This document shows, piece by piece, positions 3,097 to 23,338 of a stretch of DNA of 23,338 nt. Position 1 is the first letter of the stretch. Each line of letters starts with the position of its first letter. Origin of the DNA: Chlamydiia bacterium (lineage in GTDB: Bacteria > Chlamydiota > Chlamydiia > Chlamydiales > Parachlamydiaceae); assembly GCA_038257035.1 (NCBI GenBank), contig JBBSJT010000025.1:1-23338 (forward strand), read 5' to 3'. A model generated the notes under the pieces. That model was not told the origin of the DNA and ran no database searches. It saw nothing but the letters and a program-made list of their open reading frames with translations. The position numbers and the translations under genes were made by a program.

Positions 3097-4287
3097 TCAA
3101 GATTTGAAAGCAGCAAGTTTATAATATTTAAAAGCTTTCTCATGGCTTTGAGGGGCATGCTGGCCATTTTCATAATTTCTGGCTGTTTGGTATAGGGTTT
3201 GAGCATTTCCATGACAGCCAGCATTCTTATAATAATTGAAGGCCTTTTCTAAATTAATTTCAGTACCCAAACCTTTTTCATAGACTAGACCTAAATAATA
3301 ATAAAGATTTGCTTTATCCGAATTGGTTGTTTTAATATCAAGATTAAACGAATTTTCAGCTAATTTGAAATACTTAAAAGCCTCGTCCAAATTTTTAACA
3401 GTTCCAACACCATAGAAATAGCAATCAGCTAATTCAATCAATGCTTTCCAGCTGTATTTTTTTTCATCGACACATTTTTTAAAATAGTTAAATGCACATT
3501 TTGGTTGGGCTTTAACTCCTTTACCGTCTTTATACATAAGTGCAAGTTCAAACTGGGCAAGGTTATGCCCCTGATCAGCAGCAAGCTTGCAATAAGCAAA
3601 AGCTTTATTAATATCTTTAAAAGTGCCTATTCCATTTAGATAACAAATAAACATCTTATATTGGGCCTCAGGAAACCCTCCGTCAGCACTAAGCTTATAA
3701 AATTCAAAGCTTTTCTGTTTATTTCCTGAATCTTCATAGGATTTGGCAACTTCAAATTCTGCTGGATGAAACTTTTGATTTGCGCTAAGTTGAAAATATT
3801 TTTTAGCTTCTACGTTATGAAAAATGCCTCCTTGACCTGTTTTATAACAACAACCAAAAACATATTGAGCCTCAGGGTTTGCAAAAGGCTTCTTCAAATA
3901 GTCTGTAAGTGGATCCAATAAATTAAATGCTGATATATAATTATCGTTTTTAATGAATCCCCCACACTCAGCGACAATATTTTTAATCTTCTTGAAATAT
4001 GCAATATAAATTTCTTTTGGTTCCAAATCTTTTTCATTAATAAAATTTATTTTTTTCAAAAAGTCAAATTCAGTGACAATACAATTTTTCAAATAAGCTT
4101 TCGCCTCAGAAGAGAGACTTGAATGATACATAGCCTTACTGCACTGAGATGCCTTTGCAGCTGTTGCAGGATTAACACCTATATAATTTTCAGATGTTCC
4201 GTATAAAACTAACTTCATAACAGTGTCGGTGTCATTATATGTTATTTCTGATAAATTAGGCTGAAAATTATCGTATGCTCTTTTCAT
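3097..4287 (-). CDS. Sel1-like repeat protein with degenerate F-box-like N-terminus
   Basis: Repeats such as AQYVFGCCYKTGQG and AFAYCKLAADQGHNLAQFELA; N-terminal LVLYGT motif shared with the paralogs. Confidence 0.88.
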   Translation of the reverse strand: MKRAYDNFQPNLSEITYNDTDTVMKLVLYGTSENYIGVNPATAAKASQCSKAMYHSSLSSEAKAYLKNCIVTEFDFLKKINFINEKDLEPKEIYIAYFKKIKNIVAECGGFIKNDNYISAFNLLDPLTDYLKKPFANPEAQYVFGCCYKTGQGGIFHNVEAKKYFQLSANQKFHPAEFEVAKSYEDSGNKQKSFEFYKLSADGGFPEAQYKMFICYLNGIGTFKDINKAFAYCKLAADQGHNLAQFELALMYKDGKGVKAQPKCAFNYFKKCVDEKKYSWKALIELADCYFYGVGTVKNLDEAFKYFKLAENSFNLDIKTTNSDKANLYYYLGLVYEKGLGTEINLEKAFNYYKNAGCHGNAQTLYQTARNYENGQHAPQSHEKAFKYYKLAAFKS

Positions 4288-4518
4288 GAAGTTTCCTTAC
4301 TTTTGGGGTTGATTAGCATATAAATTAATGGTTTATTGTTTTAATTTAAATAAAAAAACGTTCGTTTTTCTTAAAAACTATTATTTTTATAAAATTTGAC
4401 CAAACCATCAAAAATATGTTGAATTCGGTAATGTGCTTTTGCTTTGCTGATAAAACCAATAAAGATTAAAGTGTCTCACTACATCTCTTATCCCGAGCAA
4501 GTTTACCCATACCCATTT

Positions 4519-7032
4519 TTATTTCTTGGAGGGGGTAACATTTTGAGTAGATGCCATTATATAATATCTCCTGGCTTCCACCAAGTCACATTCAGTACCA
4601 AGAGAGTATTGATAACAACGCGTAACGTCTTGTTGTGCTTGTTTATTTCCTTGATCAGCGCTTAATTTGTAGTATTTAAAAGCTTCCTTTAAATCAAGTG
4701 CAACCCCATCAGCAAATTCATAGCAGCGACCAACATTTTGTTGTGCAATGGCATTGCCTTGATCTGCACTTAATTTGTAATATTTAAAAGCTTGTATTGA
4801 ATCTAAATTAACTCCTTGACCATACTGGTAACAATATCCCAGATTTTTTTGTGCAACAGCATTACCTTGTTTTGCACTAAGAGTATAATAAAAAAACGCT
4901 TGTTTTGTATTAATAGGAAAACCATTAAAGCCTAACTGAAAAAGATAACCAAGGTTACATTGGGCGGCTTGATTTCCTTGATGGGCGCTTAATTCGTAAT
5001 ACCGAAGAGCATCTCTTAAGCTTAAATGTGTACCTTCACCATATTGGTAAAATTGACCCACATTATTTTGTGCAATAGCATTGCCTTTATCAGCGCTGAT
5101 TTTATAGCAATTAAAGGCCTCTTTAATATTAACATGGGTACCAAGACCGCTTTGATAAAAATGTCCAAGTTTATTTAATGCCTCAGCATGCCCCTGTTCA
5201 CCACTTTTTTTGTAATAGTTAAAAGCTTGCTTACAGTCCATTTTAATGCCAAAACCATTCTGGTAACACAATCCAACCATATACTGTGCCTCAACATGGC
5301 CCTGATCTGCACTTAGCTTGCAATATTTAAATGCTTCATTCGGATTTTTATTTGTCGCCCCGCTCAAAAGAAGACTCATTCCATATTGCGCATCTGCATT
5401 CCCTTGATCGGCAGGAATTTTATATTCTTTTAAGTTAGAAATCAGTTTTTCTTTTCCTCGAACTTCATTTTGACTACAAGACATTTCATAATTAGAAAAA
5501 GCTTCTTTTAAATTAATGGCAACTCCAAGTCCATGTTCATAGAAAAACCCAAGATGGTAAAATGCAGCATCACATTTTTTTTCTGCACTTAACTTATAAT
5601 TTTTTAAAGCCAATTCATAATTAATAGGTGTACCCAAACCATTTTCATAACAATGTCCAAGGTTGTTTAAGGCAACCGGATTTCCTTGGCAAGCACTACG
5701 AGTATAATACTTAAAAGCTTCATCTTCATTAATAGCAGTACCGATACCGTTGGCGTAGCACAATGCAAGAAGAAGCTCGCCTTGATTATTTCCTTGATTG
5801 GCGCTCATTTGATAATATTTAAACGCCTCTTCAAGTTTAATCCAGGTGCCAAGTCCAAATTCATACATATTTCCAAGATCACACTGTGAGGATGCATGGC
5901 CTTGGTCTGCAGAAAGCTTACAATATCTAAAAGCATCAACGAGATCCACCTTGGTTCCAACTCCATGTTTATAAGCAGAACTAAGACAGCTTTGAGCATT
6001 CATATTCCCCTGATCAGCTGATAGTTTATAATATTCCAAAGCTTTATCGATATTAATTTGAGTTCCCAGTCCATTTGAGTAACAATATCCAAGATTGTTT
6101 TGGCCGTTTGGATCCCCCTGATCAGCCGCAAGCTTGTAATAGTAAAAGGCTTTATTCAAATCAACCCCGAAGCCATATTTTCCAAGGTTATTTTGGTAGA
6201 GCCAACCAAGCAAATTCTGCGCTTTAGAATGACCCTGATTCGAGGCCAATGCCAAATATTTATAAGCATCATTATCTGATATATTTTTACAAATGTTTCC
6301 AAGAGCATACTGCGCTTCAGCATTCCCCTGATCAGCAGCTAATTTATAAAACCTTTTAGCTTCAGACCAATTAATAGGAATACCCAAGCCCAATTCATAA
6401 CAAACCCCAAGGCAATATTGAGCAATCGGATTTGCATTTAAATTAGCTAATTCTACATTTAGTATTCCTAAAATTTTAAAAACTTCTGCCTTATCAATAG
6501 ATTGATCTTTACTTTGGATCACACTTAGACAATATAAAGACATTTTATTAATCATATCTATTTTATTTTCAAATGCAGACTTCCATAAATCCGGCTCGTT
6601 GAAATGAATTGCATAAAAGATACGAGAAGCCTCAGTATTAAACGGCAGATGTTTTAGGCAATAAAGGTCTGCCGCTTCTTTCATCTCTTTTTTTTGGGAA
6701 TTCATTATATGAAGATCATTGGAATATTTAGAAAATAAATTTTTCCATTTCACATTTATTTGGAAAGGCTCATTGGTTACAGATGTTTTGAATTTCTCAT
6801 AAAATTTTTCTTTCCAATAACCTATTGCTTCAGAAGAATTGTTCATTTCGTAAAATGCTTTTGACGCTGCAGTCATACTAACTGCATTTTTTATTTCCAG
6901 ACCTTTGTAACCCTCACTTGTTCCAAAAATAACGAGCTGAAGAGCAAGATTAAGATTGTTTTGACGAACTTCTTCAATCTTCTGCTCTGTATAAATTGTG
7001 GGGATAATTGGATTATTTACAATGCGTTTCAT
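4519..7032 (-). CDS. Sel1-like repeat protein, 837 aa
   Basis: Many 36-aa AFxYYKLSADQGNxxAQxxLGxCYxxGxG units after a ~200-aa N-terminal domain. Confidence 0.92.
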   Translation of the reverse strand: MKRIVNNPIIPTIYTEQKIEEVRQNNLNLALQLVIFGTSEGYKGLEIKNAVSMTAASKAFYEMNNSSEAIGYWKEKFYEKFKTSVTNEPFQINVKWKNLFSKYSNDLHIMNSQKKEMKEAADLYCLKHLPFNTEASRIFYAIHFNEPDLWKSAFENKIDMINKMSLYCLSVIQSKDQSIDKAEVFKILGILNVELANLNANPIAQYCLGVCYELGLGIPINWSEAKRFYKLAADQGNAEAQYALGNICKNISDNDAYKYLALASNQGHSKAQNLLGWLYQNNLGKYGFGVDLNKAFYYYKLAADQGDPNGQNNLGYCYSNGLGTQINIDKALEYYKLSADQGNMNAQSCLSSAYKHGVGTKVDLVDAFRYCKLSADQGHASSQCDLGNMYEFGLGTWIKLEEAFKYYQMSANQGNNQGELLLALCYANGIGTAINEDEAFKYYTRSACQGNPVALNNLGHCYENGLGTPINYELALKNYKLSAEKKCDAAFYHLGFFYEHGLGVAINLKEAFSNYEMSCSQNEVRGKEKLISNLKEYKIPADQGNADAQYGMSLLLSGATNKNPNEAFKYCKLSADQGHVEAQYMVGLCYQNGFGIKMDCKQAFNYYKKSGEQGHAEALNKLGHFYQSGLGTHVNIKEAFNCYKISADKGNAIAQNNVGQFYQYGEGTHLSLRDALRYYELSAHQGNQAAQCNLGYLFQLGFNGFPINTKQAFFYYTLSAKQGNAVAQKNLGYCYQYGQGVNLDSIQAFKYYKLSADQGNAIAQQNVGRCYEFADGVALDLKEAFKYYKLSADQGNKQAQQDVTRCYQYSLGTECDLVEARRYYIMASTQNVTPSKK

Positions 7033-7218
7033 GAATGACCTTTATAAGTTTTAAATTATTGTTATATTATAACTGATAAAAATATTAAAACAAACTGTTA
7101 TTTAATTTTATAACCCTTAAAAAACACAACAAAGCAATAGTTAAAGATGTTAATAAAAAAAAGGAAGCATTTAAATTTTCATAATGAAATAAAAAGTGTA
7201 GGTTATTTAATTTTTGTG

Positions 7219-7253
7219 ATGAGTAGCGAGAGGTTTTACCTCTCGCTACTCAT
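7219..7253. terminator. Perfect 16-bp hairpin just downstream of the 774-aa Sel1 gene; possible terminator
   Basis: ATGAGTAGCGAGAGGT-ttt-ACCTCTCGCTACTCAT, 6 nt after the stop codon; no canonical U-tract. Confidence 0.5.
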
Positions 7254-7259
7254 TGCGTG

Positions 7260-9584
7260 TTAAGATTTTCTTAAAAATTGGTACTGTAAATTATTTTTAT
7301 AAAAGTAGCCCAAACGATCAAAGGCTGTTGCGTTTCCTTGATCGGCACTTAATTTATATAATTTAAAAGCTTGTTCCATATTTATTTGTGTGCCTTTGCC
7401 TTGCTGATAAAGCCAACCCAGATTACACTGACCGACTGCATCTCCTTTATCTGCTGCAAGTTTATAATAATTAAAGGCTTGAACATTATCTACAACTACA
7501 CCCTTGCCATCTTCAAAACACAAGCCTAAATTAACTTGCGCAACATTGTTACCTTGATCTGCAGCTATTTTATATAGGTTAAAAGCTGCCTCCAAATTAA
7601 CAGGAACACTATGGCCATTATAATGCATGTGTGCAAGATTTGTAATAGCCTCTACATTGCCTTGATCTGCAGCTAATGTAAAGTAGCTAAAGGCAAGACC
7701 CATATCTTGAGGTACACCTTGACCAATTTGATACATAACAGCCACTGACTTTTGCCCCCAATCATTGCCTTGGTCAGCCGACAATTTATAAGCTTCAAAA
7801 GCTTTTACTAAATCAATAGGGGTGCCAATACCATGTCCATAGCAATGCCCTAAATTCATTTGGGCATCAGCATTGCCTTGCTCTGCAGATAATCTATAAT
7901 TTTCAAATGCAAGCATAGGTTGATTAGCTTGCTGAATTCTACCCACCATATTTTGGCCATTAGCATTTCCTTGACTTGCACTAGCCTGTGCATATCGAAA
8001 TGCTTCGGGCATATTATTATGCACGGTTCCAGTTAATATATGGCTCATCATATATTGTGCTTCGGAATCCCCTTTATCCGCCTCGAGTTTGTAAAATTTA
8101 AGATAAGTATCAAGTTCGATTTTTGCATCCTGTAATCCATTGTAGCAAGCATAATCTAAATTTTTAATAAATTCACTTAAATTACCCTTTAATTTATAGC
8201 ATTTACTAAGAAAAAACTGCGCGGCAATACTGTTGAAATCGCGAATATTTTTATCTGCAACCTTTTTTAAGCATTTAATTGCTTCATTTAAGTTAACCTC
8301 GGTTCCCGATCCATTTAAATAACATAAACCTAACTCATTTAAGGCTTGGCTATTGCCTGACATTGCTGCAAATTGAAAATATTTAAAAGCTTCATTCAAG
8401 TTGACAACAGAACCACAACCTTGTTTATAACATAAACCCACTTCAAATTGTGCATTATGATTTTGCTGGTCTGCACTAAGTTTGCAATATTTAAATGCTT
8501 TTTCAAGATTCAAAAGAGTTCCAGTTCCATTTCGATAAAAAGTACTAAGCGTATGTTGCGCGTGTGCGTTTCCAAGATCGGCCGCCATCTTATAATTTTC
8601 AAAACTTAAAGCCTTGTCGCCAAGTAGATTTAGATAAACAAATCCCAGATTTGATAATGCTGTATGGCAGCCTTGGTCTGCAGATAATTTGTAACAATTG
8701 ATCGCCTCGTCTAAATTTATGCCAGTACCTAAGCCTTTTTGATAGCAAAACCCGAGACTATCTAGGGCTGACATATGACCTTGATCTGCGCTTTTTTTAT
8801 AAAGTTCAAAAGCTTCATCAAATTTACCTTTAGAGTAGTTGATATTTGCGAGCAAGTATTGAGCATCTTTATTTCCTTGATCTGCACTCAGATCCAGATA
8901 AATACCAGCTAAATTTAGATTTACATCGGTACCGTAACCTAGTTGATAGCACACCCCAAGGCAGTATTGAGCAATAGGATCTTCATCGCCATCATCCCCG
9001 CTCAGCTTATCTTTAAAGTTGCTTAAAAGCTCAAATACCTCTTTTTTATCAATGGACTTGTCTTTACTGTTTATAATTTCTAAACAATAAAGGGCTATTG
9101 CATCCTCCATATCAAATTTGTTCTTTGTTGCAGTTTGCCGTAAGGGAACTGAATGCTTTTGAATAATACTAAATAAATTAGCACATTTTGCAGAAAAATT
9201 AGGGAGTTCTTTAGTAACAATGTAATGTTCCGTCTTTTCAACCATTTCTTTTTTAGCGTTATTCAAATGATGCAAATCATTCATGCATTTAGAAAATACA
9301 TTCTTCCACTTTACATTAACTTGGAATTGCTCATTTGTGAGAGAAGAATTAAATTTCTCGATAACTTGACCATTCCAGTATTCAGTCGGTAGTTCAGGAG
9401 CTGCACCCATTTCAGAAAATACTTTGCAAGTTGACTCCATGAGGGCAGCACTTTTTGGATCAAGTCCGGTACCATAAACGACAAGCTTAATAGCCTCTAA
9501 ATAGTTATCAAAATCCATTGTTATAGGTTCGGCATTTACAGGTGTTGAACTGGTATTACTCATTGTATTAAAATCACGTTGCAT
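7260..9584 (-). CDS. Sel1-like repeat protein, 774 aa
   Basis: Many 36-aa Sel1 units; N-terminal domain paralogous to the neighbours (VKWKNVFSK, SKDKSIDK, PIAQYCLGVCY). Confidence 0.92.
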   Translation of the reverse strand: MQRDFNTMSNTSSTPVNAEPITMDFDNYLEAIKLVVYGTGLDPKSAALMESTCKVFSEMGAAPELPTEYWNGQVIEKFNSSLTNEQFQVNVKWKNVFSKCMNDLHHLNNAKKEMVEKTEHYIVTKELPNFSAKCANLFSIIQKHSVPLRQTATKNKFDMEDAIALYCLEIINSKDKSIDKKEVFELLSNFKDKLSGDDGDEDPIAQYCLGVCYQLGYGTDVNLNLAGIYLDLSADQGNKDAQYLLANINYSKGKFDEAFELYKKSADQGHMSALDSLGFCYQKGLGTGINLDEAINCYKLSADQGCHTALSNLGFVYLNLLGDKALSFENYKMAADLGNAHAQHTLSTFYRNGTGTLLNLEKAFKYCKLSADQQNHNAQFEVGLCYKQGCGSVVNLNEAFKYFQFAAMSGNSQALNELGLCYLNGSGTEVNLNEAIKCLKKVADKNIRDFNSIAAQFFLSKCYKLKGNLSEFIKNLDYACYNGLQDAKIELDTYLKFYKLEADKGDSEAQYMMSHILTGTVHNNMPEAFRYAQASASQGNANGQNMVGRIQQANQPMLAFENYRLSAEQGNADAQMNLGHCYGHGIGTPIDLVKAFEAYKLSADQGNDWGQKSVAVMYQIGQGVPQDMGLAFSYFTLAADQGNVEAITNLAHMHYNGHSVPVNLEAAFNLYKIAADQGNNVAQVNLGLCFEDGKGVVVDNVQAFNYYKLAADKGDAVGQCNLGWLYQQGKGTQINMEQAFKLYKLSADQGNATAFDRLGYFYKNNLQYQFLRKS

Positions 9585-9617
9585 ATTTTCTCCTTAAATC
9601 ACGTTAATTAAATAATT

Positions 9618-9646
9618 ACTATACATTTTATCACAATAAAAGTCAA
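9618..9646 (-). promoter_or_regulatory. Putative sigma70-type promoter for the 774-aa Sel1 gene
   Basis: Minus strand TTGACT-17 nt-TATAGT, 33 nt upstream of the ATG, followed by an AAGGAG RBS. Confidence 0.6.
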
Positions 9647-9801
9647 CCCTAATAAACATCTATTTAATAAAACTATCATTTTAACAATAAACTTTTTTTG
9701 TAGAGATGCGTTTTATTTCAAATGGTTTGTAATAATTTTTAATAAAAATACAGATTTGCAATATTGATCATCAATTAGAAAATCCCTTTTCATTCTCTCT
9801 G

Positions 9802-10535
9802 ATCTCACTTTGTAGCCCATACCAAGCTCTTGAGCGCTAGCGCTCAAGAAAGCGCAGGTGTGGGATATGTCATTATCCATTTAAACTCCTTCAGGAGTTC
9901 TTCTCTTTTCTCTTTAATTTAATCAATAAATTAATTATTTTAGTTTGCATATTTCCTGAAATATCGAGGTTATTTATGGCACATGCTTTTACAAATTTTT
10001 TATACCATCTTGTTTGGTCAACGAAAAATCGCGAACCTTTAATAAAAAAGGAATTAAAGCCTAGATTAAATAGTTATTTAAGAACAACCATTAAAAACGA
10101 AGGCGCAAACCTATTTATAAATGGGATTGAAGATCATATACACCTTCTTGTTGCAATGCCGGCTACCATGCAATTCCTGATTTGGTTCAGAAAATTAAAC
10201 CCACATCGACAAAATGGTTTCGAAAAACATTTCCAGAAGCAAAAAATTTTTCCTGGCAAGAGGGTTATGGCGGATTCAGTGTTGCAAAATCGATTTTACC
10301 TGCTGTAATAAAATATATTGAAAATCAAGAGGAACATCATAAAACAATTTCATATAAAGAAGAATTTTTACATTTCTTAAATGAACAAGGCATTAAATAT
10401 GATTTAGATACGGTTTTTGATTAGAAAAAGAGAGGAACTCCCGAGGAGTTTTTTTTTATTTTATCACATACCCACACCTGCGCCTTTCGGGCGCAAAAGG
10501 CGCCCTCACGCTTGGTATGGGCTACAAAGTGAGAT
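9802..10535. mobile_element. REPtron-like element: Y1 HUH transposase between ~110 bp structured inverted repeats
   Basis: Perfect 26-bp IR at 9802-9827 and 10510-10535, plus paired GCGCAGGTGTGGG/CCCACACCTGCGC and AAACTCCTTCAGGAGTTC/GAACTCCCGAGGAGTTT. Confidence 0.8.
9976..10424 (+). pseudogene. tnpA: Frameshifted IS200/IS605 TnpA-like or REP-associated tyrosine transposase (Y1 HUH)
   Basis: YHLVWSTKNR and DHIHLL (HUH) lie in one frame; WQEGYGGFSV and YIENQEEHH (catalytic Tyr) lie in another; adding one base near 10170 joins them. Confidence 0.85.
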
Positions 10536-10615
10536 AATAGAGAGGCAAAAGAGATTTTTATTTATAAACCAATCCATCTCTAAAAGGTGCAATCTTATTA
10601 AAGATTCATTATGGC

Positions 10616-11695
10616 TTATGCGATTAGCTCTAGCTTGAGTTTTGCCCTGAGATGGCCTTGACTAGCGCTGAACCTGTAATATTTTGCAGCTTCATAGAGA
10701 TTAACGTCTGTACCTTTACCCAATTCATAGCTAAGCCCAACCTGGTATTGGGCATCAAGGTCTCCTTGTTCTGCACTTAATTTAAAATATTTAAAAGCCT
10801 GCACTAAATTTTGGCTTAAACCATCGCCTTTTGTATAGCGCATGGCCAAATTGTACTGTGCACAATAATTGCCTTGATCTGCACTAAGTTTGTAATAAGT
10901 AATGCTTTTTTCAATATTTACCTCAGTACCAAAACCCTCAGCATAAAAAATGGCTAGCACATTTTGTGATTCTGCATGACCCTGATCTGCAATGCTCTTA
11001 TAACTCTCAAATGCTTTCTCCCTCGATAGTTCAGTCCCATAACCTTTTTCATAAAGAAAGCTTAAGTCATATTGTGCTTGTAAGTATCCTTGATCGGCAC
11101 TTAGTTTTAAATATTTAAAAGCTGATTCATCATTTTTCGAAATACCAAAACCTGCACGATAACACATTCCAAGACAATACAGTGCAGTGGGATTTGTCTT
11201 TAAATCGGAAATGAATTTTATGCTGGGTCTTAACAGCTTAAAAACTTCACTTTTTTCAAGCGATTTGTTTTTGCTGAAAAGGAGTTTAAGACAGTATCGG
11301 GATGTTTTTTCAAGTACTTTTTCTTTTTCTGAATAGGACAAAGCCTTTTCCTTGCCATAAAATTCAATGATTTTAACCATTTCTTCTTTAGCAACTTTTA
11401 AAGTTTTTTCTTTTTTACAATATTTAATATAAACATTTTTCCAGATCTGATCCATCTTATAAAGTTCATTATGCTTATAATTTTTAAATGTTTCAATAAA
11501 GTGGTTTTTCCAAAAATCATTTTGCGTTTCAATGCATAGGCTCATATTTAAAAATGCTTTACATACTAAAGCAAGCGTGGTTTCAGATTTTGGATCGACA
11601 CCAAAATAGGCTTCCCTTGTGCCGTAAATGATAATTTTCCAAATTTCGGGATAAAAATTGAAATGTTCGTTGTAATAATCAAGACCACGCTTCAT
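10616..11695 (-). CDS. Sel1-like repeat protein with F-box-like N-terminus, 359 aa
   Basis: FYPEIWKIIIY...VDPKSETTLALVCKAFLNMS...FWK, then about five Sel1 units. Confidence 0.9.
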   Translation of the reverse strand: MKRGLDYYNEHFNFYPEIWKIIIYGTREAYFGVDPKSETTLALVCKAFLNMSLCIETQNDFWKNHFIETFKNYKHNELYKMDQIWKNVYIKYCKKEKTLKVAKEEMVKIIEFYGKEKALSYSEKEKVLEKTSRYCLKLLFSKNKSLEKSEVFKLLRPSIKFISDLKTNPTALYCLGMCYRAGFGISKNDESAFKYLKLSADQGYLQAQYDLSFLYEKGYGTELSREKAFESYKSIADQGHAESQNVLAIFYAEGFGTEVNIEKSITYYKLSADQGNYCAQYNLAMRYTKGDGLSQNLVQAFKYFKLSAEQGDLDAQYQVGLSYELGKGTDVNLYEAAKYYRFSASQGHLRAKLKLELIA

Positions 11696-11792: not shown

Positions 11793-12314
11793 CTAGTTTT
11801 CGATGACTTCCGGGATTTTGGGGACAAGAGTTTTTAAATCAGGCTTTGTAAAGCCTTGTGGAAAATCAGCATCGACGGCTTTTGGCCATGTCTGATTTTT
11901 TCCTAAGAAAAACATTTCCCCTCTTAAAGTAAGATCGCCCTTATCGTCGATCCAGGCAGAGGCAGAATATTCATAACCTTTTTCAGGATCTAAGATAACG
12001 CCATTTGAAAATTTTTTGCCATGTTTTTCAAGTTCCCACATAAAATCCAACCCTACATAATAAGGATTTCCTTTAACGGCAGGAGCTCGTTTGATCGGCT
12101 TTTCAATAGTGTCATAGATTTTACCGTTATCATCATAAGTTGCAATGAGCCTGCCATAATATTTTTTTTGATACTCATAAATGGCTACAATACTTCTTGG
12201 CATATGTGTCTCATCATCAATGGTTTTCCAAAACCCTGCTATGTCTTGTGCAAAGATAGATGAGCTAAAAATAAATAAATAACATAATATGAAAATTTTA
12301 AGTTTACCGATCAC
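11793..12314 (-). CDS. Secreted DUF2147-family protein
   Basis: Signal peptide, then GFWKTIDD, YYGRLI, GVILDPEKGYEY and LTLRG motifs; GTG start. Confidence 0.8.
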   Translation of the reverse strand: MIGKLKIFILCYLFIFSSSIFAQDIAGFWKTIDDETHMPRSIVAIYEYQKKYYGRLIATYDDNGKIYDTIEKPIKRAPAVKGNPYYVGLDFMWELEKHGKKFSNGVILDPEKGYEYSASAWIDDKGDLTLRGEMFFLGKNQTWPKAVDADFPQGFTKPDLKTLVPKIPEVIEN

Positions 12315-12330
12315 GTTTACCCCTTTTGTA

Positions 12331-12469
12331 GTTAAACTCGACTTTGCAATTTTTCAGGTTCATATTCGAGAGAGAGGCAAACTACAGCTTAATAAATTTA
12401 GAAATTTATTTAGCTGTAGACAGCATCTCTCCCAAGATGAATCTTAAAAATTGCAAACTCGAGTTAAAC
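12331..12469. repeat. ~135 bp imperfect palindrome (MITE/REPIN-like)
   Basis: AACTCGACTTTGCAATTTTT...AAAAATTGCAAACTCGAGTT with inner CTACAGCTTAATAAATTT-ag-AAATTTATTTAGCTGTAG; bounded by GTTAAAC direct repeats. Confidence 0.88.
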
Positions 12470-12508
12470 GCATCTTGTCTAAAATCTAATTATTAGGATA
12501 GTTAAAAA

Positions 12509-12775
12509 ATGAATGTTGACGCATGGGAAGTTTATATAATTAAAACCTCAGATGGGAAACTCTACACCGGAATTACAAAGGATATTGAGCGTCGTTTTTC
12601 TGAACATTCATCAAAACAAAAAGGGGCTAAATTTTTCCATTTTTCAAGCCCTGAAAAAATCGTTTATCGACAAGTTTTTGAAAGTAGGGGCGAAGCTACC
12701 CGTAGAGAGATCGAAATTAAAAAGCTCACACGTTTGCAAAAACTCAATCTAGTTTTGGAACAAAACCTAAATTAG
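12509..12775 (+). CDS. Small GIY-YIG nuclease family protein (UPF0213-like)
   Basis: VYII...LYTGITKDIERRFSEH...KGAKF...EATRREIEIKKL. Confidence 0.9.
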   Translation: MNVDAWEVYIIKTSDGKLYTGITKDIERRFSEHSSKQKGAKFFHFSSPEKIVYRQVFESRGEATRREIEIKKLTRLQKLNLVLEQNLN

Positions 12776-12865
12776 ATTTTTCATCCAATGGCTACTTATA
12801 ATAATATATACTGGTTCTACTTAAATCTAAAAATAAAGCCTAAAATCAAATACTATAGCCTATAC

Positions 12866-12976
12866 GATTTTTTACAGTGAGGCAGTGAGATGCTGCATGA
12901 GATCAGTGAGAGGCAATGTATTCAGAGCCCCTCACTGTCCTCATGCAGCTTCTCACTGCCTCACTGTAAAAAAATC
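12866..12976. repeat. CAGTGAG-family palindromic element, copy 1
   Basis: 40-nt arms at 12874-12913 and 12928-12967 (4 mismatches), flanked by T and A tracts. Confidence 0.92.
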
Positions 12977-13026
12977 ATAAAAGTTATATCAAATAGAGAT
13001 TTTTTAGCATTTGAAGTTTTCTCTTT

Positions 13027-13060
13027 CAAGTAGCATTAGTATACAAGTAGCATCAGTATA
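13027..13060. repeat. 17-bp tandem duplication upstream of kdpF
   Basis: CAAGTAGCATTAGTATA followed by CAAGTAGCATCAGTATA. Confidence 0.8.
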
Positions 13061-13219
13061 TATGAATTTTTCAAACCAGGCTGTACAAGAAAAAATTCTC
13101 AAAAATTTATCTATTCATTTTTTTATTTTATAGGTTATACGTTGAATTTAACGCATATGTTTTTTAATAATTGAGATTAACTGTTAAGAAAAACGCGCAA
13201 TTTATAATGCAGGTGATGA

Positions 13220-13309
13220 ATGAATTTGGAATATATATTCATGTTGAGTTTAAGTTTGGCTCTTCTTGCTTACCTCATTTATGCTTTAATTAATCCTGAA
13301 AAACTATGA
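13220..13309 (+). CDS. kdpF: K+-transporting ATPase subunit F (29 aa; absent from the ORF track)
   Basis: MNLEYIFMLSLSLALLAYLIYALINPEKL*; YLxYALxxPEK motif, AGGTG RBS, immediately upstream of kdpA. Confidence 0.9.
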   Translation: MNLEYIFMLSLSLALLAYLIYALINPEKL

Positions 13310-13321
13310 ATTTGGTAAACC

Positions 13322-15013
13322 ATGACACTGTTTGATTTATGTGAATTATTCATTTTTATCTTGGCTTTCTCATTTCTTACAATTGTAATTGGCTCCTACA
13401 TGAAAATTGTTTATACAGGAGAAGTTTCAAATTGGACTCGCCCTTTTCTTTGGCTTGAAGATTTAACTTATCGGCTATCCAATATAAATCCAAAAACTGA
13501 AATGAACGCTTCAACTTATTTAAAGAGCCTTTGTTTGTTTAATTTCCTGGGGTTTATGGCAGTTTTTTTTCTGATGATTGCGCAAGGAATTCTTCCCCTT
13601 AATACAGAGAATTTGCCGGGAACATCCTTCGATTTAGCCTTTCATACCTCGGTAAGTTTTACGACAAACAGCAATCTGCAATCATATAAGGGAGAAAACA
13701 CTTTAAGTTACCTTACTCAAATGCTAGGTCTTGCAGTGCAAAATTTCTTAAGTGCAGCAACAGGTCTTGCTGTTTTAGTTGCCTTTATAAGAGGAATTAA
13801 ATCCCATAAAACAGACACAATCGGAAATTTTTATGTTGATCTTGTAAGATCAACAATTTATATTTTCCTACCTCTCTCCTTAATTGTTGCTACTTTTCTA
13901 CTTTTTGAAGGTGTCATTCAAACATTTTCACCTTATTTAGAAGTAATTAGCTTGGAAGGGATTAAGCAAATAATTCCTTTTGGTCCTGTTGCAAGCCAGG
14001 TTGCAATTAAACAAATCGGAACAAATGGCGGGGGTTTTTTTGGTGCAAACAGTGCCCATCCTTTTGAGAACCCAACAAAACTCACCAATTTTGTTGAAAC
14101 CTTATGTATTCTTCTTGTGCCATCCGCTTCTATTTATTTTTATGGTATTATGACAGGCAAAAAAAAACATATTATAGCCCTTTTTTCTGTCGTAGTTTTC
14201 CTTTTTGCCATCGGAATTTTATTCTCCATGTTTGGCGAATATTTATATAGTCGTACATATGATGGACTGCAAATTATGGAAGGCAAAGAAATGCGTTTTG
14301 GTCTTTTTAATTCCATATTTTGGTCAAAAGCCACAACAGTTACTTCAAACGGTTCTGTTAATGCAGCGATGGAAAGCTTATCGCCAATTGCATCAGGAAT
14401 TGCCCTTTTTAACATGATGGTTGACGAGTTGATTTTCGGGGGTGTTGGAGTCGGTCTTTGTAGCTTAATCATTTTTGTGCTATTGACTGTTTTTTTATGC
14501 GGTCTAATGGTAGGAAGAACACCTGAGTATCTTGGAAAAAAAATTGAAGCGCGCGAAATGCAATGGATTTCCTTGGCCATTTTAACGCCTGCTTCTACAA
14601 TTTTAATCGGTACAGCAATCACATCTATCTTACCATTAACTACCACAAACTTGAAAGACATGGGCCCACACGGTTTTACTACCATTCTTTATGCCTTTAC
14701 ATCAGCTGCTGCAAATAATGGAAGTTCCTTTATTAGCCTTGACACTAACACTCCTTATTATAATTTAATGCTAGGCATCATCATGCTCACCACAAGATTT
14801 TCAATTATTGTTTCGAGCTTAAATTTGGCCGCACTTTTAGCTAAAAAAAAATTGGTTCCCCCATCCATTGGTACATTCTCTACAAACAGCGCGCTTTTTG
14901 CTTTTCTTCTTTTAAGTGTGATTCTTATCGTCGGCGCTCTCACTTTTTTTCCGGCTCTTGCTTTAGGCCCTATTGCCGAGCAAATTTTATTGATGCAACA
15001 TAGATATTTTTAA
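13322..15013 (+). CDS. kdpA: K+-transporting ATPase subunit A
   Basis: TNSNLQSY, QNFLSAATG, GTNGGGFF, SAHPFENP, MVGRTPEYLGKKIE, ANNGS, LALGPIAE. Confidence 0.97.
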   Translation: MTLFDLCELFIFILAFSFLTIVIGSYMKIVYTGEVSNWTRPFLWLEDLTYRLSNINPKTEMNASTYLKSLCLFNFLGFMAVFFLMIAQGILPLNTENLPGTSFDLAFHTSVSFTTNSNLQSYKGENTLSYLTQMLGLAVQNFLSAATGLAVLVAFIRGIKSHKTDTIGNFYVDLVRSTIYIFLPLSLIVATFLLFEGVIQTFSPYLEVISLEGIKQIIPFGPVASQVAIKQIGTNGGGFFGANSAHPFENPTKLTNFVETLCILLVPSASIYFYGIMTGKKKHIIALFSVVVFLFAIGILFSMFGEYLYSRTYDGLQIMEGKEMRFGLFNSIFWSKATTVTSNGSVNAAMESLSPIASGIALFNMMVDELIFGGVGVGLCSLIIFVLLTVFLCGLMVGRTPEYLGKKIEAREMQWISLAILTPASTILIGTAITSILPLTTTNLKDMGPHGFTTILYAFTSAAANNGSSFISLDTNTPYYNLMLGIIMLTTRFSIIVSSLNLAALLAKKKLVPPSIGTFSTNSALFAFLLLSVILIVGALTFFPALALGPIAEQILLMQHRYF

Positions 15014-15022
15014 AAGGAAAAC

Positions 15023-17092
15023 ATGAATAATTCAGAAAGTTTGATTAGTAAAAGTATACTAAATGAAGCTCTATTCAATTCCTTTAAAATGCTTCGCCCT
15101 TCGGTGCAATTTAAAAACCCTATTATGTTTATCACATACATTGGTGCAATTGTCACAACCCTTTATTTATTAGCTGAAATTTGGAATAACAATTTTCTTT
15201 TCTTTGATTTTGAAGTTTGTATGTGGATCTGGTTTACCGTGTTGTTTGCTAATTTTGCAGAAAGTCTTGCTGAATCCAACGGAAAAGCACACGCTGCCTC
15301 TTTGAAAAAAACTCAAACTGAAACACTGTCACGTCAATTAAAAAATGGGATTGAAATACAAACTGAAACCAATAAATTAAAAAAAGGCGATTTAATTATA
15401 TGTGAGGTAGGAAATGTCATTCCGGTCGATGGAGAAGTTGTTGAAGGTATTGCAACGATCGATGAGTCTGCAATTACCGGTGAATCAGCACCTGTCATAA
15501 GAGAGAGCGGAGGAGATCGAAGCGCTGTTACCGCTGGTACAAGGGTTTTAAGTGATCGGATTATTATTGAAGTTACATCAGAGGTCGGCAATAGCTTTTT
15601 GGATCGAATGATCAATCTTATTGAAGGGGCAAAAAGACAAAAAACTCCTAATGAACTTGCACTGAATGTTTTATTGTCAGGACTCACAATTCTTTTTCTT
15701 ATTATAACCGTCACCCTAAGATTTTTTGCTTCATTTGGAGGGCCTAACGCAAATGCTATTACCGTTCCTATTCTCATTGCTCTTCTCATTTGTTTAATAC
15801 CCACATCAATCAGTGCCCTTTTAAGTGCTGTCGGAATTGCAGGAATTGAGCGACTTACAAGACGTAACGTCATAGCAAAAAGTGGAAGAAGCGTTGAGGC
15901 TGCAGGCGATGTAGACCTGCTCATACTAGATAAAACAGGAACCATCACCATTGGCAATCGTTCAGCGACAGCATTTATTCCCGTGAATGGAAAATCTGAA
16001 AAAGAATTTGCAGAAATTGCACAGCTAGCATCACTCGGAGATGAAACTCCAGAGGGCAGATCCATCGTTGTACTTTCAAAAACAAACTTTAATTTAAGGG
16101 CCGAATCTCTAGATATTCAAAACTCTAAAATCATTCCCTTTTCAGCCACAACAAAGATGAGCGGTGTAAATTTTTTTGATGATGAGGGTCAAACGATTCG
16201 TATGATTAGAAAAGGCTCTTCAAGCGCAATCAAAGCACATGTTGAAACACTTGGTGGAATTTATCCTGAACTTATTGATGTAACATTGCAAACCATTTCA
16301 AAAAGCGGCGGCACTCCCCTTCTTGTGTCAGATAACGAAAAAATTATTGGGGTTATTCATTTAAAAGACATCATTAAGGGTGGCATTAAAGAGCGTTTTA
16401 AAGAAATGCGAAAAATGGGTATCAGGACGATCATGGTTACAGGTGACAATGCTTTAACTGCCGCAGCAATTGCCGCAGAAGCCGGTGTTGATGATTTTGT
16501 AGCTGATGCCACACCTGAAATTAAACTTGAGCTGATTAAAAGAGAGCAAAATAATGGCCATCTTGTTGCTATGACGGGTGATGGAACAAATGATGCTCCG
16601 GCACTTGCACAAGCAGATGTTGCTGTCGCCTTAAATACCGGAACACAAGCCTCAAGAGATGCCGGTAATATGGTAGACCTTGACAGCAACCCTACAAAGC
16701 TTATTGACATTGTTGAAATAGGAAAACAATTACTGATGACAAGAGGTGCTTTGACAACTTTTAGCATTGCAAATGATGTTGCCAAATACTTTGCCATCAT
16801 CCCTGCAATTTTTAGTTCTTTATATCTTGGCAAGAATGACACGGTGGGCCCGCTTGCACATTTAAATATTATGCATTTGAATTCACCCAAGAGTGCGATT
16901 TTAAGTGCGATCATTTTTAATGCGTTAGTAATCATCGCATTGATCCCCCTTGCAGCAAAAGGGGTGAAATATTCACCTAAATCGGCCGATGAAATGTTAC
17001 AACGAAATATTTTGATTTATGGTGTTGGAGGATTTATTGCTCCTTTTATAGGAATTAAAATGATTGATCTCGTTGTCCAGTATATAGTATAG
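15023..17092 (+). CDS. kdpB: K+-transporting ATPase subunit B (P-type ATPase)
   Basis: [38 protein letters not shown]. Confidence 0.97.
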
Positions 17093-17156
17093 ATCTTTTT
17101 TACCACAAAGGGTATGAGTAGGCATTGTTGCAACTGGGAAAGTGAAAAGTTATAGA

Positions 17157-17263
17157 TTTTTTTACCAGTGAGGCAGTGAGAAAGACATGAGATCAGTGAG
17201 AGGTTTATGTAAGCAGTACCCCTCACTGTCCTCATGTTTTTCTCACTGCCTCACTGGTAAAAA
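17157..17263. repeat. CAGTGAG-family palindromic element, copy 2, in the kdpB-kdpC gap
   Basis: Arms at 17164-17203 and 17219-17258, highly similar to 12874-12967. Confidence 0.92.
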
Positions 17264-17335
17264 TATATAATCACTGGTTCCCTCTTTGTGCTCTCTTGGT
17301 AAAAATGCAAAAGGTGACTTTTAAATAAGGTTAAT

Positions 17336-17911
17336 ATGAGTAGCTTATCAACATCATTGCGATTATTTCTTTGGCTTACATTACTCACAGGTATTGTCTA
17401 CCCGTTGATTATTACTTTTATTGGTTACACTTTTGTTAACAACAAGCGAACCGGTGATATCATCTTTGTAGAAAATCGCCCAATCGGGGCCAAACTGATC
17501 GGACAAAAATTTGAAAGTGATCGCTATTTCCATAGTCGTCCCTCAAGTATCAACTATAACCCTCTTAATTCAGGAGAAAAAGTTTTAGGTCCTACAAGCC
17601 TTGAATTAAGAAATAAAGTAGCAGTACGAGAAGAAATGATTACTAAAAAGTTTAAATTTAACGGTCACATACCACCTGAACTTCTTTTTGAATCTGCAAG
17701 CGGTCTTGATCCCCATATTAGTAAGGAAGCAGCTTTAATCCAAGTGGACAGCGTCATGGCAGCAAGAGGATTAAATGCTGAACATAAATATGTAATACTT
17801 AAACTCATTGATGAACTAAATTCTCAGCCGTTCAGGACGTATGGAAAGCCTTATATCAATGTTTTAATACTCAATCATTCATTAGATTTGATTTTAGGGA
17901 GTTTGATGTGA
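17336..17911 (+). CDS. kdpC: K+-transporting ATPase subunit C
   Basis: LTGIVYP, LIGQKF, YFHSRPS, SASGLDPHIS, INVLILN. Confidence 0.95.
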   Translation: MSSLSTSLRLFLWLTLLTGIVYPLIITFIGYTFVNNKRTGDIIFVENRPIGAKLIGQKFESDRYFHSRPSSINYNPLNSGEKVLGPTSLELRNKVAVREEMITKKFKFNGHIPPELLFESASGLDPHISKEAALIQVDSVMAARGLNAEHKYVILKLIDELNSQPFRTYGKPYINVLILNHSLDLILGSLM

Positions 17912-20106
17912 ACGAGGAAAACAGACCCAATCCGGACGAGCTTCTTAAAGCAATTCAAAATAGAGAAAACCAGGAGAGCAAGGGTCGTCTAAAAATATTT
18001 CTTGGAATGGCAGCGGGTGTTGGAAAAACTTATGCAATGTTACAAGAGGCTCAAGAATTAAAAAAAGCCGGCCTCGATGTTCGTATTGGTACTGTTGAGA
18101 CCCATAACCGCATCGAAACGATGAACTTGGTCAAAGGGCTTGAAATTATCCCGGAAAAAATTGTTTATTATAAAGATAAGGAATTTAGCGAACTTAACCT
18201 TGATGAAATCATTCGTTTAAAACCCAAAATTGTTTTGGTCGACGAATTAGCTCATAGTAATATCCCGGGATTAAGACATGAAAAGCGCTGGCAAGATGTT
18301 GTGGAAATTCTTGCCAACGGAATTGATGTTCACACAACTTTAAATGTACAACATATTGAAAGTTTAAAAGACATCGTAGAAAATATTTCATCCATAGTAA
18401 TCCGAGAAACTGTCCCCGACCTTGTAATTGAAAGGGCTGCATTTATTCAAATTGTTGACATTGTTCCTAATGAGCTTTTAAGAAGGCTGGATGAGGGCAA
18501 AGTGTACCTTGGAGATCAGTCAAGAATTGCTGCTCTTAATTTTTTTAAAGAAGATAAATTAACTGCCCTAAGAGAAATTCTTTTAAGGTATACTGCTGAA
18601 AAAATCGATCATGATTTACACAATATGGTTTCAATTGTCGAAAACGAAAATCAATGGAAACCAAGAGAAAAATTACTTGTAGCTGTAGGATCAAGTCCAC
18701 ATTCACAAAAACTGATCCGAAATACTAGGCGCTTGAGTTCAATTCTTGAAGCTCCATGGATAGCCGTTTACGTCGATACAGGGGAAGCTTTATCAGAATC
18801 TGATACAAGCATGCTCGACAAAAATTTATCGCTGGCAAGAGACCTTGGTGCCGAGGTGATTACCACTTACGACCCTAACATTGCAGATGCCATTCAACGA
18901 ATTGCAAGACGAAGGGGGGTAACCCAAATCATTGTTGGAAGAAGCCCCCAAAACGGCTTTTTTAGCTTTTTTAAAAAAATGAGTCTTCAAGAAAAGCTTG
19001 CTAAAGATTGCAAAGACATTGATATCCATATGGTAAGGCAACAGCAGCAACTAACGACCCATCGAAAAAAATTAAGGGCTACAGCTAAATCCAAACATTA
19101 TAGCGATTATTTGTTTGTTTTTTTCTACGTAGGTCTTTTAGGGCTCCTTAATTTCATGATTTATCCTCTGGTTGGCTATCAAGTAATCGGTGAAATTTTT
19201 TTCATTGGTATTTTGGCTTTAACCCTTTTTTTTAAAAAAGGTCCTATTTTTTTTGCAACGCTCCTTTTTTCATTGATTTGGTTTTTCTTTTTTATTCCCG
19301 ATGAATTTAAATTTTCCATTGAATCCATTTTATTACTTTTACTCTATTTTCTGACTGCAATTGCAACAGGCATTTTAGTGGATCGGTATAGAACACACCA
19401 AGAAATGCTTGCCAAACGTGAGGAACAGTCACTTGCGCTCTATCGCATCATCCGTGAGATAGCTACAGCTACATCATCGACAAAGTTATTTAAAGAAATC
19501 GATGAGCGTTTAGAGAGGCTATTTAAAACAACTATTGAAATTGTCATAAAAGAAATTAACGATGGCCTGGTCTTTAGCGAAAAGTCAGAACTTCTTACCG
19601 ATGAAAAGGAAAAAGCCGCATTAAGTTGGGTTTTTGAAAATGAAGTAGAAGCCGGTTGGTCAACAGATACTTTGCCTCTTTCCCAAAATTTATATATTCC
19701 CCTAAAAGGCTTTCATGAAATTGTCGGGATTCTTATTTGTCAAAAAAGAAAAGGGGAAATGTTAAGCTTAGATGAAAAGAATTTCCTCTACACCGTTTCA
19801 CAGCAACTTGGGTATCATATTGAACGCTCATTTTTAGAAGAGCGTGCCAATCAAAAAGAGATGCTCATACAATTAGAAAAAATCAATAAGTCGATTTTGA
19901 GACGACTTGGAAATGAATTTAAACCATTAGCATTAGATGCTAAGCATGTCGTAAACACATTTAAAGAAAAACTCCAGACAAGCCATAATAAAGTATTAAT
20001 AAGCGACTTTTCAAAAATTGAAAAGTCGCTTGAGAAATTAACCAGAGCATTCGAGCATGTTTCTCTTATGACAGATGTTGATAAAAAAAGTGAACCGGCA
20101 AAATAA
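17908..20106 (+). CDS. kdpD: KdpD-like sensor lacking a recognisable kinase domain
   Basis: RPNPDELL, GMAAGVGKT, VDELAHSN, KRWQDV, Usp domain, four TM helices and a GAF-like region; ends about 85 aa later; GTG start overlaps the kdpC stop. Confidence 0.9.
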   Translation: MNEENRPNPDELLKAIQNRENQESKGRLKIFLGMAAGVGKTYAMLQEAQELKKAGLDVRIGTVETHNRIETMNLVKGLEIIPEKIVYYKDKEFSELNLDEIIRLKPKIVLVDELAHSNIPGLRHEKRWQDVVEILANGIDVHTTLNVQHIESLKDIVENISSIVIRETVPDLVIERAAFIQIVDIVPNELLRRLDEGKVYLGDQSRIAALNFFKEDKLTALREILLRYTAEKIDHDLHNMVSIVENENQWKPREKLLVAVGSSPHSQKLIRNTRRLSSILEAPWIAVYVDTGEALSESDTSMLDKNLSLARDLGAEVITTYDPNIADAIQRIARRRGVTQIIVGRSPQNGFFSFFKKMSLQEKLAKDCKDIDIHMVRQQQQLTTHRKKLRATAKSKHYSDYLFVFFYVGLLGLLNFMIYPLVGYQVIGEIFFIGILALTLFFKKGPIFFATLLFSLIWFFFFIPDEFKFSIESILLLLLYFLTAIATGILVDRYRTHQEMLAKREEQSLALYRIIREIATATSSTKLFKEIDERLERLFKTTIEIVIKEINDGLVFSEKSELLTDEKEKAALSWVFENEVEAGWSTDTLPLSQNLYIPLKGFHEIVGILICQKRKGEMLSLDEKNFLYTVSQQLGYHIERSFLEERANQKEMLIQLEKINKSILRRLGNEFKPLALDAKHVVNTFKEKLQTSHNKVLISDFSKIEKSLEKLTRAFEHVSLMTDVDKKSEPAK

Positions 20107-23142: not shown

Positions 23143-23291
23143 TGGGGCGTTCGATCTAGACCCAGAACCTCAATTTTAAGAATAATGTTCCTTTAAAATT
23201 TGTGCCACTTTCTTGCTTTTCATATTGCTGATGCTACTTGAAATTGAAAATTTGCAATGCCTAATAAAGCTATGTATTATAGCATCTTCGA

Positions 23292-23338
23292 TTTTTTCAA
23301 CGCAGAGACGCAGAGGCGCTGAGACGCAGAGAAGCGCG
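23292..23338 (+). repeat. T-tract plus tandem 8-mer ACGCAGAG, at the window edge
   Basis: TTTTTTCA-ACGCAGAG-ACGCAGAG-GCGCTGAG-ACGCAGAG. Confidence 0.8.

Follow-up and report, generated by a model that had tools for sequence, protein, structure and literature searches.

The 23,338-nt stretch of chlamydial DNA analyzed here (contig JBBSJT010000025.1; its full length is referred to as the window) carries two similar palindromes built from the heptamer CAGTGAG. Copy 1 occupies 12868..12973 on the + strand (106 nt) and copy 2 occupies 17158..17264 (+, 107 nt), 4.3 kb apart; arm asymmetries give copy 2 the same orientation as copy 1. [quoted passage not shown] We present below the structure of the palindromes, the pattern of change between them, and their insertion-like setting, and then weigh this reading against its competitors.

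The palindromes and their departure from chance, as put forward in the original prediction, were borne out. CAGTGAG occurs 12 times in the window against 0.96 expected, a count reached by 0 of 100 shuffles, and all 12 occurrences fall in these two places—six per element, three on the + strand followed by three on the − strand. An inverted-repeat search returned arms of 47 nt and 91% complementarity for copy 1 (12868-12914/12927-12973) and of 52 nt and 88% for copy 2 (17153-17204/17218-17269). The outer 16-mer CAGTGAGGCAGTGAGA and the inner 18-mer CATGAGRWCAGTGAGRGG each have four exact matches, one per arm, and no further match in the window at up to three mismatches. Each strand of each copy folds into one long hairpin, as RNA (−73.4 to −86.3 kcal/mol; z −14.0 to −15.5) and as DNA (−44.3 to −50.7 kcal/mol; z −13.5 to −14.9), with 0 of 200 shuffles as good in either case. 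Single arms have no fold of their own (−1.1 to −3.8 kcal/mol; z −1.07 to +0.12; 31–100 of 200 shuffles as good).

Both copies follow one plan: a T-run ending in TA (T6-A in copy 1), an outer doublet, a variable block, an inner block, a loop of 14–15 nt, and the mirror image of the whole, with the left arm flanked by the T-run and the right by an A-run. The outer doublet reads CAGTGAG-G-CAGTGAG-A and is preceded immediately by TTAC in both copies; it lies at 12875..12890 (+) with its mirror at 12951-12966 in copy 1, and at 17166-17181 and 17241-17256 in copy 2. The inner block, CATGAG-AT-CAGTGAG-AGG, is a second and slightly degenerate doublet, found at 12896..12913 (+) in the left arm of copy 1, where its mirror (12928-12945) has GA and G at the asymmetric positions, and at 17186-17203 and 17219-17236 in copy 2. 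An arm is, in short, two 16-nt doublets of a CAGTGAG-type heptamer with a spacer of 4–5 nt between them. That spacer is the variable block: 5 nt in copy 1 (12891..12895, + strand, pairing with 12946-12950) and 4 nt in copy 2 (17182-17185 pairing with 17237-17240), one shorter on both arms.

Differences between the copies are confined to particular parts of this plan. The four constant blocks show no difference in 66 nt, whereas 14 of the 25 columns of variable blocks and loops differ (Fisher P = 4e-10). The variable block of copy 1 starts with a T.T opposition and continues with G-C, C-G, T-A, and G-C, and that of copy 2 consists of A-T, A-T, G.T, and A-T; the mismatched T.T position is absent from both arms of copy 2, and all four remaining pairs differ on both sides with pairing retained (three Watson–Crick, one G.T). 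At the outer end of copy 2, one extra C on the left and one extra G on the right add a C:G pair, the gain of a paired base that had been described. From base composition alone, and with the symmetrical length changes left out of the count, four bases picked at random would pair with the left block's new sequence with a probability of ~0.018. The claim that a variable segment changes on both arms together therefore holds, although the segment is really 4–5 nt rather than 8–9, because the longer estimate had taken in CATG sequences that are constant. The loops, said to diverge, do differ (14 nt at 12914..12927 on the + strand in copy 1; 15 nt at 17204-17218, +, in copy 2), yet copy 2's loop is partly like that of copy 1, with ~9 of 15–16 columns still matching.

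Three oppositions other than Watson–Crick pairs are identical in the two copies: A.C, T.T, and A.C as seen on the + strand. The − strand shows G.T, A.A, and G.T at these positions, so that two of the three become wobbles. They lie at 12902/12939, 12903/12938, and 12911/12930 in copy 1 and at 17192/17230, 17193/17229, and 17201/17221 in copy 2, and they account for the shared arm asymmetry of the original prediction, left GAG-AT-CAGTGAG-A-GG against right-arm complement GAG-GA-CAGTGAG-G-GG, which is indeed the same in both. What had been called bulges are mismatches, however, because the arms are equal in length; the fold has no extrahelical bases.

The contrast between 0 of 66 and 14 of 25 implies that the sequence of the blocks matters in itself, and not pairing alone. 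The pattern points to a constraint on the heptamer blocks that is specific to their sequence, for instance binding by a protein, at least as much as it points to one on the fold; the simplest reason for such conservation would be a binding protein, with a transposase as the obvious candidate. The concerted change of the spacer, in turn, implies that the two arms are kept alike or complementary. Three processes would each produce it: selection on the hairpin, hairpin-templated correction, or the existence of two variant master copies. The three shared mismatches, seen in two copies, are what descent from a single asymmetric ancestor predicts. By strand, the RNA folds reach −80.9 (+) and −86.3 (−) kcal/mol in copy 1 and −77.4 (+) and −73.4 (−) kcal/mol in copy 2; since neither strand folds consistently better, the data carry no sign of selection at the RNA level. 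The proposal that the fold is functional, specific irregularities included, as single-stranded DNA or RNA thus survives in part. Joint change in four of four pairs and the symmetrical C:G support, as far as two sequences can, the view that something beyond common ancestry maintains the palindrome. For a function of the mismatches, or of a single-stranded DNA or RNA form, the comparison gave no support: shared descent suffices for the mismatches, and two copies would fit a functional fold and common ancestry alike.

The setting of the two palindromes is compatible with inserted DNA. Whether the copies are compared with one another or each with its own reverse complement, similarity stops just beyond the T- and A-runs, leaving sharp ends and unrelated outer flanks. 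One frame (12837-12980, +) is open across the whole of copy 1; no + frame is open across copy 2, where the longest open frame, 17017-17250 on the − strand, extends over most of the element. Between the two stretches checked, no reading frame is open in both. Copy 1 begins 93 nt after a GIY-YIG gene, with kdpF following ~250 nt beyond it, and copy 2 is contained in the spacer between kdpB and kdpC (17093..17335, +). That spacer measures 243 nt, against 12 nt between kdpF and kdpA, 9 nt between kdpA and kdpB, and a 4-nt overlap of kdpC and kdpD; in four plasmid-borne kdp operons, examined out of 462 plasmid records with a KdpC match, the kdpB–kdpC gap is 13, 18, 75, and 100 nt. Sharp ends, unrelated flanks, lack of coding capacity, and an over-long kdpB–kdpC junction all fit insertion.

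The dimensions of the element also agree with those of a MITE. Set beside the general definition of MITEs in a passage of PMC11602168, the palindromes have 47- and 52-nt arms (91% and 88%) where terminal inverted repeats of at least 10–15 bp are called for, and a length of 106–107 nt where the range is 50–800 bp without a transposase gene.

Under the foldback-repeat reading, the heptamer blocks would be putative sites bound by a transposase whose gene lies in another part of the genome, and the element would have spread by transposition into intergenic sites of the form T(n)A(n). What keeps the arms complementary would be either a need for identical sites at the two ends or the movement or repair of the element in hairpin form. 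Copy 2 would be cotranscribed with kdpFABC as an RNA duplex of ~45 bp that does not terminate transcription, and it might act as a processing site or an exonuclease barrier between kdpB and kdpC, a side effect rather than a purpose. Such effects, through cutting by RNase III or the blocking of 3′ exonucleases, are known for REP (repetitive extragenic palindromic) and Correia elements.

MITEs that are nearly all inverted repeat—Correia of Neisseria, RUP of Streptococcus pneumoniae, and ERIC/IRU of enterobacteria—are among the closest points of comparison. The chlamydial element resembles them in being ~100 nt long, non-coding, and intergenic, in forming one long hairpin, and in its position within an operon; they too can sit in operons and be cotranscribed. 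Correia and RUP insertions have TA at their ends, as TA stands beside both ends here. Unlike these families, to which no sequence similarity was found, the present arms are made of heptamer doublets, and the T-run and A-run flanks may belong either to the element or to its target.

Several observations weigh against a mobile foldback repeat. Where a MITE would have a target-site duplication of 2–10 bp, none of at least 3 nt was found at shared offsets. TA adjoins both ends if copy 2's extra C:G is counted as part of the element, yet TA...TA is also part of the palindrome. Ends shared with an autonomous insertion sequence (IS) were not found in the window, whose sole transposase gene (9976-10424) is flanked by a different sequence. 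Nor was an empty site observed. The two copies are associated with a single operon, which leaves room for a local, operon-specific role. Only two copies are known: with E values of up to 1 allowed, blastn of copy 1 matched nothing among 72,556 plasmids or 50,697 phage records, and no related sequence was found among the at least 114 loci recovered by a scan of a genome collection. Nor did protein-level searches add to the count, with no word-search candidate among predicted proteins for the 47-aa peptide of the copy 1 open frame and none of five small open reading frames (ORFs) over or beside the elements (0/5) found by exact look-up in a protein collection.

The genome scan used the pattern CAGTGAGNCAGTGAGN{0,30}CAGTGAG, whose N lets it match 8-nt tandem arrays, and the at least 114 loci (L001–L114) are unrelated octamer tandem arrays, (CAGTGAGN)n, in unrelated and mostly high-GC genomes; one of them (L035, 9997-10530) has 66 octamer units. 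The window being a metagenome contig, the collection scanned may not include its genome. Among the loci listed, 11 have inverted heptamers within 150 nt, all at a GC fraction of 0.51–0.67, and none of the 11 listed loci with GC below 0.45 has them. A blastn search of both copies against 118 loci gave matches to one arm only, of at most 44 nt and 38 bits. Phmmer of the 47-aa peptide against 1.84 billion representatives gave two matches (E 2e-4 and 8e-4), both to unrelated repeat proteins. Four 15-mers of the element occurred in the literature only in three unrelated primer lists. No report of a foldback repeat or MITE in chlamydiae was found among the best 20 of 2,272 papers, of which the single one that also named chlamydiae dealt with CRISPR, or, going by title, among 13 papers containing both terms. 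The presence of two copies in one 23-kb contig suggests a multi-copy family.

The first competing explanation is that the palindromes are single-strand hairpin elements moved by an HUH tyrosine (Y1) transposase, counterparts of REPINs or of TIRtron TIRs, with the mismatches marking the active strand, in line with the original prediction. We think this unlikely, and the Y1 version of mobility weak. In its favor, a frameshifted IS200-like Y1 gene, enclosed by long inverted repeats, is found at a distance of 2.4 kb; the two copies have the same three mismatches; and in each the first heptamer comes right after TTAC. IS608 inserts 3′ of TTAC, and TA at both ends recalls the ends of Tc1/IS630 elements; each is a lead rather than a test. 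The inner arm also weakly resembles the flanks of the transposase, in TGAGATCAG[T/A]GAGA, and the 9-mer GAGAGGCAA occurs three times against 0.12 expected. Its occurrences, at 10540, 12372, and 12908, are all on the + strand and each in a different inverted-repeat element; the count has low weight because the 9-mer was chosen after sight. The arrangement of a Y1 gene within inverted repeats is that of a TIRtron, whose TIRs, according to a passage of Di Nocera et al. 2013 (PMC3733652), can form dispersed and often dimeric repeat families.

Against this explanation, the sequence flanking the transposase is a different one: at 17 of 25, the best match in the flanks scarcely exceeds the 16 of 25 given by unrelated sequence, and tests of kinship with the Y1 flanks returned uncorrected P values of 0.005–0.035 over 16 comparisons, which is not significant. 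The transposase gene is broken, and, as seen above, neither strand is consistently the better folder. REP and REPIN identity was rejected on related grounds. A REP or REPIN unit is a stem-loop of 20–40 bp; REPINs were reportedly described by Bertels and Rainey in 2011. In the part of PMC3733652 that treats them, the unit has a GTAG or CGTC tetranucleotide at one end, and these two tags define two REP superfamilies. Neither copy contains GTAG, CGTC, or their complements CTAC and GACG, single arms are not stem-loops (z −1.07 to +0.12), and no RAYT gene flanked by this repeat was found in the window, the Y1 pseudogene being flanked by a different inverted repeat. Because the tags are absent and the halves are not stem-loops, the palindromes are not REP dimers or REPINs. 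They share with REP dimers, REPINs, and TIRtron TIR repeats a long hairpin of two inverted halves with conserved asymmetry between them, and with TIRtrons the presence of a Y1 transposase gene in inverted repeats nearby in the window; they differ in having no tag, in halves that are not palindromes, and in a neighboring transposase gene that is frameshifted and has other flanks.

A broader formulation would make the palindromes an undescribed class of hairpin element in environmental chlamydiae, REP-like without the GTAG/CGTC tag, whose arms are heptamer arrays and whose three fixed mismatches mark a strand; it would move as single-stranded DNA by a Y1 (TIRYT-like) transposase or would have been co-opted by the host as an operon-punctuating RNA duplex. 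We hold this to be quite unlikely.

A second competing explanation assigns the palindromes to the host as a cis-element of kdp—either an RNA duplex within the kdpFABC transcript that sets the level of kdpFAB relative to kdpC(D), through RNase III or an exonuclease block, or an array of eight heptamers serving a DNA-binding regulator as operators at both ends of kdpFAB. Both known copies do flank kdpFAB in the same orientation, as originally stated: kdpF lies at 13220-13309, and kdpA at 13322-15013, kdpB at 15023-17092, and kdpC at 17336-17911 were assigned with Pfam, all on the + strand. The perfect conservation of heptamer blocks beside drifting spacers would suit an operator, and transcription of kdpC from the operon promoter would presumably have to pass through copy 2, with read-through expected since no U-run follows the hairpin. 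Several features argue otherwise. Copy 1 lies ~250 nt from kdpF and upstream of tandem 17-mers that have the look of the true operator; no regulator gene is linked; the + strand, which is mRNA sense, has the mismatches A.C and U.U and, in copy 1, is not the strand that folds better; and the four other kdp operons have no such spacer. We judge a host-owned kdp element very unlikely.

Local segmental duplication of a chance palindrome with neither mobility nor function, which the existence of only two known copies 4.3 kb apart might suggest, is an explanation to which we give hardly any credence, given flanks unrelated right up to the element ends, non-uniform divergence (0/66 vs. 14/25), concerted changes in the arms, and fold z-scores near −15.

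Other known identities were tried and rejected. An attC site was dismissed on the grounds that no GTTRRRY core was found, the arms are equal in length, and a scan of 18 ORFs in the window returned no match to an integrase family. The reading for the core covered both strands of copy 1 and the + strand of copy 2: copy 1 lacks GTT on both strands, and in copy 2 the one GTT of the + strand (in GGTTTATG) has a T after it instead of R. An attC site is likewise an imperfect palindrome of similar size, but strand choice in attC is made by unpaired, extrahelical bases, which the equal arms here do not provide. As strong, G+C-containing hairpins after a gene, the palindromes resemble intrinsic terminators with the T/A runs reversed; they are not terminators, because on both strands the T-run precedes the hairpin and the A-run follows it, and a terminator scan found none at these sites. 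No known Rfam family matched at gathering threshold in the whole window. At E up to 10, the region around copy 1 (12300-13350) gave 37 Rfam matches, all below gathering scores, and those over copy 1 itself were mostly to eukaryotic microRNA-precursor models, with a few to small nucleolar RNA and other models. A CRISPR identity was also rejected. Sigma-70-like promoters showed no signal over 12300-17400 (17 sites vs. 16.0 expected).

The window holds further inverted repeats, among them at least two other long intergenic palindromes unrelated to the CAGTGAG element. A 150-nt palindrome at 663-812 lies between the convergent rlmH-like (216-638, +) and dus (829-1803, −) genes and folds as RNA to −65.8 kcal/mol (z −12.5). 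Tandem Repeats Finder resolves its arms into tandem 9-mers, AAAGGACTA, with 2.8 units in the left arm and 4.8 in the right; like the CAGTGAG element it has arms of short tandem units, and its sequence is unrelated. A second palindrome, of 145 nt at 12328-12472 (−62.3 kcal/mol; z −11.6), lies between the divergent DUF2147 (11793-12314, −) and GIY-YIG (12509-12775, +) genes; the latter, encoding 88 aa, is bracketed by two different palindromes, this one and copy 1. The IS200-like Y1 transposase gene (9976-10424) is split by a frameshift into 9976-10180 and 10182-10424 and enclosed by inverted repeats at 9779-9827 and 10510-10558, which also hold GC-rich hairpins; the TIRtron-like unit as a whole (9779-10558) is inserted between Sel1-repeat genes. 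With these other long palindromes and a transposase pseudogene between inverted repeats, foldback DNA is a habit of this genome, which favors the foldback-repeat reading.

Pfam assigns the remaining neighbors as well, including those just named: msrAB (2108-2968, −), four Sel1-repeat genes (3097-11695, −; 396, 837, 774, and 359 aa), whose 108-nt periodic DNA repeats dominate the direct-repeat families of the window, and, downstream of kdpC, a kdpD-like gene (17908-20106, +). The 732-aa KdpD-like protein contains the domains KdpD, Usp, and DUF4118; the final 228 residues match neither HisKA nor HATPase and give just a weak GAF match (E 0.0044), and no kdpE follows its gene in the window. Inside kdpD stand T6A7 (18967) and T8A6 (19226), the sole T(5+)A(5+) sites in the window; these runs match the form of the site that would be left if the palindromes were excised with a TA duplication. 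The sequence CAAGTAGCATYAG occurs three times against 0.06 expected (13027-13060 and 23228-23240): two occurrences make up the tandem 17-mer upstream of kdpF, and the third precedes a − strand ORF of 527 aa, toward which it is oriented as the other two are toward kdpF. It may be a shared operator or promoter element. At the contig end, an 8-nt tandem array of 4.1 units (23300-23332) may be the reason the assembly stopped there.

The nearest named relatives by protein are Parachlamydiaceae and Chlamydiia metagenome-assembled genomes, Chlamydiales bacterium STE3, and Criblamydia, at 66–70% identity for DusC and 63–65% for the GIY-YIG protein; closer relatives occur among metagenome proteins (95% and 82% for DusC, 82–89% for the GIY-YIG protein). 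The window has a G+C content of ~35%. Judged by these proteins, the host is an uncultured environmental chlamydia related to the Parachlamydiaceae.

For the present, the element stands as a well-made, ordinary-looking small repeat. If it proves to be multi-copy, it would be a described foldback repeat in Parachlamydiaceae-like chlamydiae, and its heptamer-doublet arms would indicate the ends of an unknown transposase. Copy 2, lying inside kdpFABC, would offer a natural test of the effect of a 45-bp RNA duplex on a polycistronic mRNA.

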